Program-made: the position numbers and the translations under genes
Shown here: piece after piece, positions 12,329 to 19,248 of the stretch
Layout: each line of letters opens with the position of its first letter
How positions within the stretch are numbered: the stretch's first letter is position 1
Virus genome (UHGV): UHGV-0135199
From: a virus
DNA length: 19,248 bases
Reading direction: 5' to 3' (one strand)
The notes under the pieces: model-generated
Told to the model about the DNA's origin: nothing
The model's input: the letters and a program-made list of their open reading frames with translations, nothing else
Databases searched by the model: none

Positions 12329-12400
12329 GCGCGGCGTTACCGCATACCAATTACGCTTCACTCGAGGCGTTTTTCGTTATGTATAAATAAGGAGCACACC

Positions 12401-12565
12401 ATGCAATATGCCATTGCAGGGTGGCCTGTTGCTGGCTGCCCTTCCGAATCTTTACTTGAACGAATCACCCGTAAATTACGTGACGGATGGAAACGCCTTA
12501 TCGACATACTTAATCAGCCAGGAGTCCCGAAAAATGGATCAAACAATTATGGCTATCCAGACTAA
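12401..12565 (+). CDS. cIII: cIII (inhibitor of FtsH-mediated cII degradation)
   Basis: Hand-translated [54 protein letters not shown]; AAGGAG SD; not on the ORF track (54 aa). Confidence 0.9.
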   Translation: MQYAIAGWPVAGCPSESLLERITRKLRDGWKRLIDILNQPGVPKNGSNNYGYPD

Positions 12566-13053: not shown

Positions 13054-13839
13054 ATGAGTACAGCACTCGCAACGCTGGCTGGGAAGCTGGCTGAACGTGT
13101 CGGCATGGATTCTGTCGACCCACAGGAACTGATCACCACTCTTCGCCAGACGGCATTTAAAGGTGATGCCAGCGATGCGCAGTTCATCGCATTGCTGATC
13201 GTCGCCAACCAGTACGGCCTTAATCCGTGGACGAAAGAAATTTACGCCTTCCCTGATAAGCAGAACGGCATCGTTCCGGTGGTGGGCGTTGATGGCTGGT
13301 CCCGCATCATCAACGAAAACCAGCAGTTTGACGGCATGGACTTTGAACAGGACAACGAATCCTGCACATGCCGGATTTACCGCAAAGACCGCAATCATCC
13401 GATCTGCGTTACCGAGTGGATGGATGAATGCCGCCGCGAACCATTCAAAACCCGCGAAGGCAGAGAAATCACCGGACCGTGGCAGTCGCATCCCAAACGG
13501 ATGTTACGGCATAAAGCCATGATTCAGTGTGCCCGTCTGGCCTTCGGATTTGCTGGTATCTATGACAAGGATGAAGCCGAGCGCATTGTCGAAAATACTG
13601 CATACACTGCAGAACGTCAGCCGGAACGCGACATCACTCCGGTTAACGATGAAACCATGCAGGAGATTAACACTCTGCTGATCGCCCTGGATAAAACATG
13701 GGATGACGACTTATTGCCGCTCTGTTCCCAGATATTTCGCCGCGACATTCGCGCATCGTCAGAACTGACACAGGCCGAAGCAGTGAAAGCTCTTGGATTC
13801 CTGAAACAGAAAGCCACTGAGCAGAAGGTGGCAGCATGA
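13054..13839 (+). CDS. bet: Bet (Red-beta single-strand annealing protein)
   Basis: [59 protein letters not shown]... matches lambda Bet. Confidence 0.95.
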
Positions 13840-16017: not shown

Positions 16018-16632
16018 ATGAAAAAATCAATACTAATTTTAGGGCTTACGTTAATTGTCTCATCTCAAATACCATCGGCAATGGCAAAAAATGAATCAAA
16101 ACTATGGGTTGTTGTTGATCGAACGGAAAGACATACCTGCCCTTCAAGTAAATGTGGAGTGGCTGGAAAACTATTTTTCAGGGAAGGCGTAGATTTTCTA
16201 GAAAAAAAAGGTGAATGGGTTCGTATAACTGAGCCATATTCAGCCTCATGTGTTGGAGGGGAAAGCGAATATATTAAAGAAGGTAATAAATCCTGCACAA
16301 GAAAAAATGGAATCGTTAATGGCAAGTTTTCAGAATGGGTTAAACTTAGTGATCTTAGCAGTGAAAGGCCATCAGATCCTGCTGAAAATGCGAGCGGAGA
16401 TGATACTTTAATCAAAGGATCTGATGACTACCGTATATACAAAAAAGAGTTTTCTTCGGCAGCTAGGAAGTTAATAAATGAAGGGGTCTGCACGGAAAGC
16501 GATTTTAAGGAAATCGGAGGGTGGATGGCATCAAGCAATAAGGGTGAAAACATCTATTTCACATATTGCGGAGGAATGACGTTGTCGAACAGAATATACC
16601 TAGATGTTAAAAGTGGAAAGACTTTTAGATAA
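16018..16632 (+). CDS. Hypothetical secreted protein (204 aa) with N-terminal signal peptide
   Basis: MKKSILILGLTLIVSSQIPSAMA followed by KNE (probable signal peptidase I site); eight Cys in the mature part; AAAAGGA SD; AT-rich; no family recognised. Confidence 0.7.
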   Translation: MKKSILILGLTLIVSSQIPSAMAKNESKLWVVVDRTERHTCPSSKCGVAGKLFFREGVDFLEKKGEWVRITEPYSASCVGGESEYIKEGNKSCTRKNGIVNGKFSEWVKLSDLSSERPSDPAENASGDDTLIKGSDDYRIYKKEFSSAARKLINEGVCTESDFKEIGGWMASSNKGENIYFTYCGGMTLSNRIYLDVKSGKTFR

Positions 16633-16704
16633 TATGATATTACCAATGACAGTATTGATTTAATGCCTCCATAGAATTATCTCTAGGAAGTAGGTATAAG
16701 AAAA

Positions 16705-16740
16705 GCCCGCACAATGAGCTGCTGCGGGCTTTGTGTTATT
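16705..16740 (+). terminator. Intrinsic terminator after the secreted-protein gene
   Basis: 7-bp stem gcccgca/tgcgggc with 11-nt loop followed by TTTGTGTTATT. Confidence 0.55.
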
Positions 16741-16782: not shown

Positions 16783-16928
16783 GCGTTGCTGGTTGTCGAT
16801 TCCTCAATCACTCCTGTGGATGGCTCTCTTCTTGTATGTGCCATTGAAGGGGAATATCGCGTAAAAAGATACCGGAAGTATCCGCGCCGCCATTATTGTC
16901 TTTCTCCTGATGCAGGAAAAGCAGAATG
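16783..16928 (+). pseudogene. C-terminal fragment of an S24 (LexA/UmuD-like) peptidase; no N-terminal domain or start codon
   Basis: Translates ALLVVDSSITPVDGSLLVCAIEGEYRVKRYRKYPRRHYCLSPDAGKAE; resembles the UmuD/LexA segment around the catalytic Lys (...[29 protein letters not shown]...) from recollection. Confidence 0.4.
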
Positions 16929-17259
16929 ATCCTACCCACGTAATATGGACACAGGCCTAAGCGAGGTTCTGGTTTTCAAATTGTTCCGGACTGAGGCCGC
17001 CACACCAACTGTGCCACGCGTCGCTTCAGGCGTGCGCCTTGCGAGTTTGGTGAGTACATCGCGTTACTGAGCCGCCAGGATGATGCACGTGTGCGCTGGC
17101 GTATAAAATCGATCAGCAGAAAACGTTGCGGTAAGTGCGGCGAGAGAGTTCCTGTTAATTCATGCCCGTGTAATGGTGACTCACAATGCTGGGTGACCAA
17201 AGGCTGGCACGAAACAAAATTAATGATATAAATCTCTGTGACATGTCACGGAGGCGGCA

Positions 17260-17688
17260 ATGAAATTAGACCAGCAATATCTAAAAGATCTACTTATCGC
17301 ATTCGAAAAAACTCGTGGCCCTGACACGATGCTTAGTGAACTAGAGGATAATGGCTTTAATAGATATGACCAAGATTTTATTTTCCATATGCGATTATTA
17401 TGTGACTACGAATTAATAGTCAGGGTTGATGGAAAACCTGGATTCGGTCATATAATGTCCAAAGCGTTAGGGGAAGGTGTTGGATATAGTTGGATCGAAG
17501 TACCACTGAGGTTGACAGCAAGAGGGCATGATTTTATTGCTGACTTACGTCAAAAGGATGTCTGGCAAGCTATAAAAACAAACTTTAAGGATGAGGGAAT
17601 TAGTACACTTATGAGTGTTTCAAAATCACTAGCAAAAGGCTTTGCAAGGAAAAAGATAAAAGATATTACAGGAATAGATATTGAATAA
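17260..17688 (+). CDS. Hypothetical protein (142 aa), AT-rich accessory gene upstream of orf55/xis
   Basis: ATG at 17260 preceded by GGAGG; MKLDQQYLKDLLIAFEKTRGPDTMLSELEDNGFNRYDQDFIFHMRLL...; no family confidently recognised. Confidence 0.7.
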   Translation: MKLDQQYLKDLLIAFEKTRGPDTMLSELEDNGFNRYDQDFIFHMRLLCDYELIVRVDGKPGFGHIMSKALGEGVGYSWIEVPLRLTARGHDFIADLRQKDVWQAIKTNFKDEGISTLMSVSKSLAKGFARKKIKDITGIDIE

Positions 17689-17771
17689 TTCTTAGCATCA
17701 AGCAACTACTGCCTTTGGTGGAAATTATATCTGAACTCGCTACGGCGAGTTTTGTTTTATGGAGATGATAA

Positions 17772-17939
17772 ATGCACTTCCGAGTCACAGGTGAATGGAA
17801 TGGAGAGCCATTCAACAGGGTTATCGAAGCAGAGAACATCAACGACTGCTATAACCACTGGATGATATGGGCGCAGATAGCGCATGCAGACGTAACCAAT
17901 ATTCGAATTGAAGAACTGAAAGAACACCAAGCCGCCTGA
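17772..17939 (+). CDS. Lambda orf55-like small protein
   Basis: Hand-translated MHFRVTGEWNGEPFNRVIEAENINDCYNHWMIWAQIAHADVTNIRIEELKEHQAA; GGAG SD; immediately upstream of xis. Confidence 0.65.
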   Translation: MHFRVTGEWNGEPFNRVIEAENINDCYNHWMIWAQIAHADVTNIRIEELKEHQAA

Positions 17940-17978: not shown

Positions 17979-18197
17979 ATGTACTTGACACTTCAGGAGT
18001 GGAACGCACGCCAGCGACGCCCAAGAAGCCTTGAAACAGTTCGTCGATGGGTTCGCGAATGCAGGATATTCCCACCTCCGGTTAAGGATGGAAGAGAGTA
18101 TCTGTTCCACGAATCAGCGGTAAAGGTTGACTTAAATCGACCAGTAACAGGTAGCCTTTTGAAGAGGATCAGAAATGGGAAGAAGGCGAAGTCATGA
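17979..18197 (+). CDS. xis: Excisionase
   Basis: MYLTLQEWNARQRRPRSLETVRRWVRECRIFPPPVKDGREYLFHESAVKVDLNRPVTGSLLKRIRNGKKAKS is essentially lambda Xis. Confidence 0.95.
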   Translation: MYLTLQEWNARQRRPRSLETVRRWVRECRIFPPPVKDGREYLFHESAVKVDLNRPVTGSLLKRIRNGKKAKS

Positions 18198-19248
18198 GCG
18201 CCGGGATTTACCCCCTAACCTTTATATAAGAAACAATGGATATTACTGCTACAGGGACCCAAGGACGGGTAAAGAGTTTGGATTAGGCCGAGACAGGAGG
18301 ATAGCAATCACTGAAGCAATACAGGCCAATATTGAGTTACTCTCAGACAGCGGACGCAAATCACTGATAGACAGAATTAAAGGCGGTGACGCAATCACTC
18401 TTCATGTGTGGCTTGACCGATATGAAAGAATCCTCACCGAAAGGGGGATCAGGCCGAAAACTCTACTCGACTACGCCAGCAAAATCAGGGCAATCCGAAG
18501 AAAATTGCCGGACAAACCGCTCACTGACATATCAACGAAAGAAGTGGCAGCAATGCTAAACACCTACGTAGCAGAAGGTAAAGCAGCTTCCGCAAAATTA
18601 ATCAGGTCAACCCTTGTTGACGTTTTTCGTGAAGCAATAGCCGAGGGGCATGTGGCAACGAATCCGGTAACAGCAACCCGTACAGCAAAGTCAGAAGTAA
18701 GGCGCTCAAGGCTGACAGCTAATGAGTATGTCGAGATTTACCATGCAGCCGAACCTCTCCCTATCTGGCTAAGGCTGGCGATGGATTTGGCCGTCGTTAC
18801 AGGGCAGAGAGTCGGCGATTTGTGCAGAATGAAATGGTCAGACATAAACGACAACCATCTTCACATTGAACAGAGTAAAACAGGGGCTAAACTCGCCATT
18901 CCGCTAACGCTAACGATTGACGCGCTCAATATCTCATTGGCTGATACACTACAGAAATGCAGGGAGGCCAGCAGCAGTGAAACTATAATCGCATCAAAGC
19001 ATCACGATCCTCTTTCCCCGAAAACAGTATCAAAGTATTTTACAAAGGCGAGAAATGCATCTGGACTCTCATTTGATGGAAACCCGCCAACATTCCATGA
19101 ACTGCGTAGCCTGTCAGCGAGGCTATACCGGAACCAGATTGGCGATAAATTTGCTCAACGTCTTCTCGGGCATAAATCAGATTCAATGGCGGCGCGGTAT
19201 AGGGACAGCCGTGGACGGGAATGGGACAAAATTGAAATCGACAAATGA
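18175..19248 (+). CDS. int: Tyrosine integrase (lambda Int family)
   Basis: MGRRRSHERRDLPPNLYIRNNGYYCYRDPRTGKEFGLGRDRRIAITEAIQANIEL... through ...HELRSLSARLY...GHKSDSMAARYRDSRGREWDKIEIDK, including conserved catalytic-domain segments; overlaps xis by 23 bp as in lambda. Confidence 0.95.
   Translation: MGRRRSHERRDLPPNLYIRNNGYYCYRDPRTGKEFGLGRDRRIAITEAIQANIELLSDSGRKSLIDRIKGGDAITLHVWLDRYERILTERGIRPKTLLDYASKIRAIRRKLPDKPLTDISTKEVAAMLNTYVAEGKAASAKLIRSTLVDVFREAIAEGHVATNPVTATRTAKSEVRRSRLTANEYVEIYHAAEPLPIWLRLAMDLAVVTGQRVGDLCRMKWSDINDNHLHIEQSKTGAKLAIPLTLTIDALNISLADTLQKCREASSSETIIASKHHDPLSPKTVSKYFTKARNASGLSFDGNPPTFHELRSLSARLYRNQIGDKFAQRLLGHKSDSMAARYRDSRGREWDKIEIDK

Follow-up and report, generated by a model that had tools for sequence, protein, structure and literature searches.

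A DUF2513 winged-helix gene as single-gene mobile cargo in the ea8.5 slot of a lambda-like prophage

A DUF2513 gene directly upstream of orf55-xis-int

We analyzed a 19,248-nucleotide (nt) stretch of DNA from the virus genome UHGV-0135199 (hereafter the window; all coordinates are positions within it), which, judged from its gene content, contains the left (pL) early operon of a lambda-like prophage, and focused on a gene of 142 codons at positions 17260 to 17688 that encodes a protein of the DUF2513 family. A first-pass annotation made from the letters of the sequence had described this open reading frame (ORF) as a well-formed, AT-rich gene, had proposed that it represents optional cargo at a variable site next to int, and had regarded its product as a soluble protein that matches no family that could be named with confidence. 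The gene and its ribosome binding sequence are as follows.

17260-17688 (stop codon included), plus strand: coding sequence for the 142-amino-acid (aa) DUF2513 / PHROG 585 winged-helix protein, supported by the ORF list, Pfam, PHROG, AlphaFold and selection analyses
17250-17254, plus strand: Shine-Dalgarno sequence GGAGG, read from the sequence, 5 nt before the ATG

The ORF, the ATG as its start codon, its length, the GGAGG sequence and the AT-rich composition were all present as the first-pass annotation had described them; the GC (guanine plus cytosine) content of the gene is 0.37-0.38 as compared to 0.46-0.53 in the flanking DNA. A GGAG or AGGAG sequence is found at the equivalent spot in orthologous DUF2513 loci, and the start codon is confirmed by the fact that every orthologue begins with MK(L/I)(D/N). 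When compared to five orthologues (from Enterobacter, Citrobacter, Serratia, Cronobacter and Yersinia), the gene showed 0.13 to 0.26 nonsynonymous differences per site and saturated synonymous sites (0.76 to 0.88); the ORF is a genuine protein-coding gene under purifying selection. No hydrophobic segment was seen in the 142-aa protein and its AlphaFold model is a compact globular fold, in agreement with the solubility that had been proposed.

Downstream of the gene, the window is 97.7% identical to lambda from position 17724 onward, i.e., over the orf55-xis-int block. This homology resumes 36 nt past the DUF2513 stop codon and, in lambda, begins 41 nt past the ea8.5 stop codon; the DUF2513 gene thus sits exactly in the ea8.5 slot. 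Homologues of kil, gam, bet and exo are also present in the pL operon of the window. The features that define this context are:

17733-17762, plus strand: intrinsic terminator-like hairpin GAACTCGC-TACG-GCGAGTTT followed by a T tract, 45 nt past the DUF2513 stop codon and within lambda-homologous DNA
17772-17939, plus strand: orf55 homologue (55 aa, PHROG 676), the first gene of the lambda-homologous orf55-xis-int block
17979-18197, plus strand: xis
18175-19248, plus strand: int
12388-12446, plus strand: lambda cIII thermoregulator RNA (Rfam RF01804, 88.5 bits), which confirms a lambda-type pL operon

The DUF2513 gene shares with lambda ea8.5 its position directly upstream of the terminator and orf55-xis-int, and both are small, non-essential accessory genes of the pL operon. 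Ea8.5 is described as a homeodomain/zinc-finger hybrid, and the DUF2513 protein differs from it in being a winged helix without a Cys cluster. Confident homology to a characterized lambda b-region protein would have refuted the first-pass annotation; we found no similarity to Ea8.5 (BLASTP gave no meaningful alignment; best E = 9.0). The gene is missing from lambda and most lambdoid phages, 183 of 5426 complete E. coli genomes contain it and, among 214 phage records that match the region, just one covers it; its description as optional AT-rich cargo in the ea8.5 slot therefore stands, and only the absence of a nameable family had to be given up. The gene resembles a phage "moron" in being optional, in its deviant GC content (0.38 as compared to 0.48) and in being followed by a terminator.

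The terminator-like hairpin (17733-17752, without the T tract) separates the DUF2513 gene from orf55. A terminator scan found 6 terminator-like sites as compared to 1.7 expected in shuffled sequences, and a hairpin with a run of T is also found 3' of the DUF2513 genes in loci L003, L005, L050, L056-59 and L060-63. A search with Rfam detected no RNA family in or near the DUF2513 gene.

Family membership and prevalence

The protein for which no family had been recognized from the sequence matches the Pfam family DUF2513 (PF10711) with 42.7 bits (E = 7.7e-11; residues 2-115 aligned to positions 1-100 of the 100-position model), above the curated gathering cut-off of 29.6 bits, and PHROG 585 ("unknown function") with E = 2.2e-34 (residues 1-135 aligned to positions 1-127 of the 128-position profile). 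Moreover, the identical gene carries the RefSeq name "DUF2513 domain-containing protein" in the 183 E. coli genomes mentioned above. The residues conserved in the family, i.e., Y7, L12, F42-H43, D49, R84-L85-T86, G89-H90 and F92, are all found in the window protein; each of them is shared by 84% or more of 115 diverse representatives and shows little or no variation among 34 close homologues. The window protein thus shares with PF10711 and PHROG 585 a full-length match, the FH, RLT and GH.F motifs, its size and its stand-alone architecture; it differs from the Pfam model in a C-terminal helix (residues 114-137) that falls beyond the 100 model positions and is common to the proteobacterial subgroup. 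Some DUF2513 relatives also score on the model of a related Pfam family, YjcQ (PF09639). At E ≤ 1, a Pfam scan of the window protein returned only DUF2513 and a weak match to wHTH-PRTase_assc, with no MarR or PadR model among the matches, and no NCBIfam model matched.

The identical gene is also carried by the temperate phage Chlobot, and a cluster of 509 database entries has as its representative a sequence that is 97% identical; the gene is thus already catalogued and widely annotated, and the sequence itself adds nothing new. An exhaustive profile search yielded 1425 representatives at 50% identity, nearly all of which are stand-alone proteins of about 135 aa. By tblastn, a detectable DUF2513 homologue is present in just 3 of 50,697 sequenced phage records. 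Our literature search found no published work on the function of DUF2513, YjcQ or phrog_585, and the integron-cassette screening literature found in it made no mention of the family.

Predicted structure of the DUF2513 protein

The AlphaFold model of the window protein, built on 34 homologues, has a pLDDT (predicted local distance difference test) of 93.5 and a pTM (predicted template modelling score) of 0.84. The model consists of three helices and a four-stranded wing, i.e., a MarR/PadR-like winged helix-turn-helix of about 100 residues, in which the wing is enlarged by an insertion of about 25 residues; three additional helices follow at the C-terminal end (residues 87-97, 99-108 and 114-137), the last of which is basic and amphipathic. 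The C-terminal 44 residues are basic. The protein has no catalytic domain.

Structural matches obtained with Foldseek were almost all MarR, PadR or HxlR regulators, some of which were solved on operator DNA. The DUF2513 protein has the winged helix-turn-helix fold in common with these regulators, and the conserved DUF2513 core contains the RLT..G ("LT..G") wing motif that is typical of MarR-type domains. However, no sequence-profile match links the protein to these regulators, the Foldseek TM-scores (template modelling scores) over the whole protein are just 0.3 to 0.45, and the protein differs from them in the wing insertion, in an acidic domain and in that no associated operator was found. 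Foldseek searches against BFVD and PDB returned no significant full-length match, and neither a solved structure nor a characterized protein was found that matches over the entire length. A weak sequence match of the wing region to PDB entry 9e5e, labeled "Bacteriocin" (E = 0.62), was attributed to chance, as family profiles miss it and the entry is an encapsulin shell protein.

Genomic distribution of DUF2513 genes

Close orthologues of the DUF2513 gene were found at four or more prophage positions. The E. coli orthologue lies before xis and int, in the ea8.5 slot; the Citrobacter orthologue is in the nin region, before DinI, RusA and Q; the Serratia orthologue lies just before an exonuclease and an integrase; and the orthologues of Cronobacter and of a Klebsiella phage are located just before the small terminase gene.

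In Vibrio, all four loci examined (L011, L016, L018 and L026) presented the DUF2513 homologue as a single-gene cassette with repeats of the form ATAACAAA...GGCGTTA on both sides, and one of them (L018) contained 11 GCGTTA[TG] core motifs in 7.6 kb. We take these repeats to be VCR (Vibrio cholerae repeat)-type attC sites, based on their agreement with the VCR consensus; read in this way, the Vibrio homologues are integron cassettes in a chromosomal array. Chromosomal integron cassettes have been reported to be rich in small single-gene anti-phage systems. One such cassette product, Lugos, is outlined as a stand-alone protein that has a distant relationship to DNA-binding proteins of the helix-turn-helix type and causes lysis of the culture upon infection (Darracq et al., bioRxiv 10.1101/2024.07.02.601686). 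The Vibrio DUF2513 homologues are likewise single genes flanked by attC sites, a likeness to Lugos-type cassettes that is one of description only; Lugos offers a published precedent for an integron-cassette product of helix-turn-helix kind that acts alone and aborts infection by phage. No report of a defence phenotype for any DUF2513 protein was found in the literature.

Some distant DUF2513 genes adjoin genes of restriction-modification systems. Of the type I genes, hsdR lies next to DUF2513 in L024 and apparently in L025 (where the assignment is by a shared protein cluster only), whereas DUF2513 and hsdM are divergently oriented in L030 and L033, with hardly any DNA between them, a layout that resembles that of a controller protein. 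The neighbour in L046 is an Eco57I-like methylase.

Three independent metagenomic representatives (P0128, P0238 and P0197; loci L067 and L068, on contigs of just about 2 kb) carry the DUF2513 module at the N-terminal end, with a TIR or TIR-like domain behind it. These C-terminal domains are a CAP12/Pycsar-type TIR and TIR_2, and in P0197 a weak TIR-like match to DUF4062. The DUF2513 module of these proteins is in the place usually taken by the sensor domain in sensor-TIR anti-phage effectors. In contrast to such effectors, the window protein has neither a TIR nor another effector domain, and three short helices are found there instead.

Search for partner genes and for a DUF2513-specific element

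All-against-all clustering of neighbouring genes revealed no conserved partner gene in 47 genome loci. Pfam and PADLOC scans of 90 neighbours gave scattered matches only (HsdM three times, small terminase twice, M78 peptidase twice). A pairing with an M78 peptidase (ImmA/ImmR-like) was dropped as a lead, as it occurs in only 2 of the 47 loci, and the N-terminal extensions of four homologues (L040, L027, L041 and L022) showed no recognizable domain and are probably over-called ORFs.

A second DUF2513 subgroup (45-50% identity) is found at the Rz/terminase junction, behind a conserved element of about 50 nt that lies about 40-90 nt upstream of the DUF2513 start codon in L006, L008, L009, L012, L014, L015, L017 and L050. 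This element (GCATTACAG..GGCATTCACTGAGTGCCTGTGATAATGCTAAATTA) comprises an imperfect inverted repeat and an extended -10-like TGnGATAAT motif; in the annotated phage L050, it is located between lysis and terminase genes. We found the element in at least 120 viral-contig loci (L069-L188), where DUF2513 accounted for 3 of 95 downstream ORFs. It also precedes dozens of unrelated small genes, which encode lipoproteins, HNH endonucleases and membrane proteins, among others. As dozens of unrelated genes follow the element and DUF2513 is so rarely one of them, the element looks like a generic signal for the expression of cargo in enterobacterial temperate phages.

The upstream phrog_536 gene, its IS3 scar and the palindrome

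The first-pass annotation had missed that the DUF2513 gene usually follows an intact 112-aa gene of PHROG 536 and that, in the window, this gene is broken by a remnant of an IS3 insertion sequence. The features between this scar and the Shine-Dalgarno sequence are:

16928-17010, strand not assigned: IS3 fragment of 83 bp that replaces the first approximately 38 codons of phrog_536, 100% identical to the ends of "IS3 family transposase" elements
17007-17231, plus strand: 3' remnant of phrog_536, codons 39-112 (100% identity over residues 39-112 by tblastn; DNA alignment)
17224-17232, plus strand: extended -10-like sequence TGaTATAAA, read from the sequence, a possible weak promoter that overlaps the phrog_536 stop codon
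17238-17249, strand not assigned: perfect palindrome GTGACATGTCAC, located 3' of the phrog_536 stop codon and 5' of the Shine-Dalgarno sequence

The intact phrog_536 product ("transcriptional regulator", with a Cys-rich C-terminus) is encoded 28 nt before the DUF2513 start codon in E. coli PK8568 and in phage Chlobot. The PHROG 536 match has an E value of 7e-48 for the intact protein and of 8e-19 for the 46-aa ORF that is left in the window. The IS3-end sequence occurs at 13,548 places (copies or fragments) in 3990 E. coli genomes; the exact scar of the window was found in none of the 5426 complete E. coli genomes, in which the best matches cover 93% of it, in two pieces.

A TATAAA or TATAGT sequence is present in all versions of the phrog_536 3' end that are linked to DUF2513, and is missing from those without DUF2513. 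A consensus promoter scan that required a -35 element called no -35/-10 promoter on the plus strand, and the TGaTATAAA sequence was not called by it.

The palindrome GTGACATGTCAC is conserved before DUF2513 in E. coli, Enterobacter, Yersinia and Cronobacter, and with one mismatch in Citrobacter and Serratia; the flanking bases vary. It is also found at the stop codon of phrog_536 genes with no DUF2513 downstream, i.e., in epsilon15 gp49 (L064), TL-2011b (L065), ZF40 gp22 (L066) and a Citrobacter prophage (L006, position 2243). Copies at position 8253 of L062 and L063 likewise lie at or right after phrog_536 stop codons, a location seen in many enterobacterial phages whatever gene follows. The palindrome could be a binding site of the phrog_536 protein or a recombination boundary.

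In the close DUF2513 subgroup, no fewer than the final approximately 30 nt of phrog_536 are always kept, and the full gene is found only in E. coli, Yersinia and Cronobacter. The simplest reading of this linkage is one of history: a DUF2513 gene was inserted behind phrog_536 and later moved with it as a block that was trimmed by recombination. The original insertion probably occurred in an epsilon15-like phage between phrog_536 and the terminase genes, an arrangement that is still seen in Cronobacter.

Further upstream, the window contains a second AT-rich cargo gene (16018-16632, plus strand; GC content 0.36-0.39), whose 204-aa product has a signal or lipoprotein-like peptide at its N-terminus; this product matches PHROG 8310 (unknown function) and, weakly, SH3_3, and its gene is followed by a terminator-like hairpin at 16704-16720. 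Between the two cargo genes, a 47-codon ORF (16786-16929, plus strand) is a gene fragment, annotated in relatives as a truncated "UmuD-like" or "DNA repair" protein.

Proposed role and alternative explanations

Based on the sequence comparisons and the structural model, we tentatively propose that the DUF2513 protein is a self-contained, non-enzymatic binding protein, carried as mobile cargo, that serves conflicts between phage and host or between phages. As single-gene mobile cargo, the gene has settled in the ea8.5 slot of this lambda-like prophage, at the distal end of the pL operon between exo and orf55-xis-int. From this distal position, the gene would be transcribed with the N-antiterminated early-left transcript at induction or infection, and the weak extended -10-like promoter at 17224-17232 may add transcription. 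As the relatives of the gene move singly among unrelated contexts, the protein would have to act alone, possibly by stoichiometric binding of a target via its winged-helix surface. Nucleic acid, bound in the manner of MarR or PadR proteins, would be the likeliest target; the winged-helix fold and a wing motif (RLT..G) like that of MarR make it the default candidate. A protein appears less likely, and the acidic surface and hydrophobic recognition helix leave room for a protein or small-molecule target. Binding might be used for exclusion or defence, or for control of the gene expression of a competitor or of the host. A more specific version, that stand-alone DUF2513 proteins of about 140 residues are a widespread and so far unrecognized class of single-gene conflict modules that sense an invader-derived molecule, block infection alone and spread as prophage cargo and integron cassettes, with the same sensing module wired to TIR effectors in some bacteria, is possible but unlikely.

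A number of observations weigh against a conflict role or against binding of nucleic acid by the DUF2513 protein. The winged-helix part has a net charge of -4 in the window protein and of -5.9 on average in 34 homologues, and most residues of the "recognition" helix (DFIFHMRLLCDY) are hydrophobic or acidic, which is atypical of a sequence-specific DNA binder; the negative charge is unfavourable to DNA binding without being decisive. Both candidate operators were rejected: the palindrome GTGACATGTCAC as an autoregulatory operator, because it belongs to phrog_536 genes including those without DUF2513, and the 50-nt inverted-repeat element, because only 3 of the 95 ORFs downstream of it are DUF2513 genes. 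The orientation of the genes within pL, nin and late operons suggests lytic expression, unlike that of classical prophage defence genes, which are expressed in the lysogen. Many distant members lie beside housekeeping genes (e.g., pheS, pyruvate kinase), the proximity to restriction-modification genes is a matter of individual loci, and a TIR fusion was seen in only 3 of the top 150 representatives. A search of PADLOC-DB 2.0 with the window protein returned no family at E ≤ 1, and no experimental datum for any member of the DUF2513 family was found in the literature.

The structural matches to MarR/PadR/HxlR regulators, including those on operator DNA, would also be expected if the protein were an ordinary dimeric MarR/PadR-like transcription factor that tunes a few phage or host promoters (in lysogenic conversion or host takeover) and has no part in conflict. 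In the model, the C-terminal helices could form a PadR-style dimer interface, and the distant members that are divergent beside hsdM are reminiscent of controller proteins. The acidic winged-helix surface, the absence of an operator that travels with the gene and the lack of a Pfam MarR or PadR match even at E ≤ 1 argue against such a factor, as does the consideration that a lone regulator hopping among unrelated genomes and integron arrays would seldom meet its target; overall, we regard an ordinary transcription factor as unlikely. Acidity of the N-terminal domain is in line with a role in counter-defence, in which an early phage protein would block a component of host immunity, e.g., as a decoy or dominant-negative form of a TIR-linked DUF2513 sensor or as an acidic mimic of nucleic acid. 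The gene is co-oriented within early operons, which carry ral and gam, in prophages of E. coli, Citrobacter, Serratia and Cronobacter, and homologous modules are fused to TIR domains in bacteria. However, members of the family are often encoded in bacterial chromosomes outside prophages, and in Vibrio by integron cassettes, where anti-defence makes less sense, and the family is nearly absent from phage isolates (the 3 of 50,697 records noted above), with no match among virulent phages; counter-defence is thus rather doubtful as the function of the protein.

Neighbouring genes suggest two other explanations. The phrog_536 Zn-ribbon protein could form with DUF2513 a two-gene module (regulator and effector, or toxin/antitoxin-like), which the IS3 scar would have disabled or deregulated in the window; phrog_536 lies directly upstream with a gap of 28 nt in E. 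coli, Yersinia and Cronobacter, even though the flanks differ and divergence amounts to 47-62%, and each close orthologue retains at least the last approximately 30 nt of phrog_536 and the palindrome. This module seems improbable, as phrog_536 with its palindrome is regularly found in epsilon15-like and other phages without DUF2513, only a stub of it lies beside DUF2513 in Citrobacter, Serratia and Enterobacter, it is never seen with the more distant DUF2513 genes and, in the window, phrog_536 is destroyed with DUF2513 intact. An accessory function in site-specific recombination or DNA packaging, in which the protein would assist Xis/Int or the small terminase, would account for the location of the gene next to xis and int here and next to small-terminase genes elsewhere, and Xis is itself a winged-helix protein. 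We consider such a helper function highly improbable, given that the neighbours vary by locus, that lambda recombines and packages without DUF2513, and that both positions are known variable cargo sites, the Rz/terminase slot holding dozens of unrelated genes.

Conclusions

Overall, this analysis sharpens the picture of an uncharacterized family, whose members appear as self-sufficient, single-gene mobile cargo. Small genes for anti-phage or counter-defence functions have recently come to light in contexts like those of DUF2513, which makes the family a sensible choice for a low-cost screen for phenotypes (phage resistance or anti-defence) in E. coli. If stand-alone DUF2513 proteins do act in defence or anti-defence, they would be among the smaller proteins of this kind, and a function would be provided for more than a thousand protein clusters.

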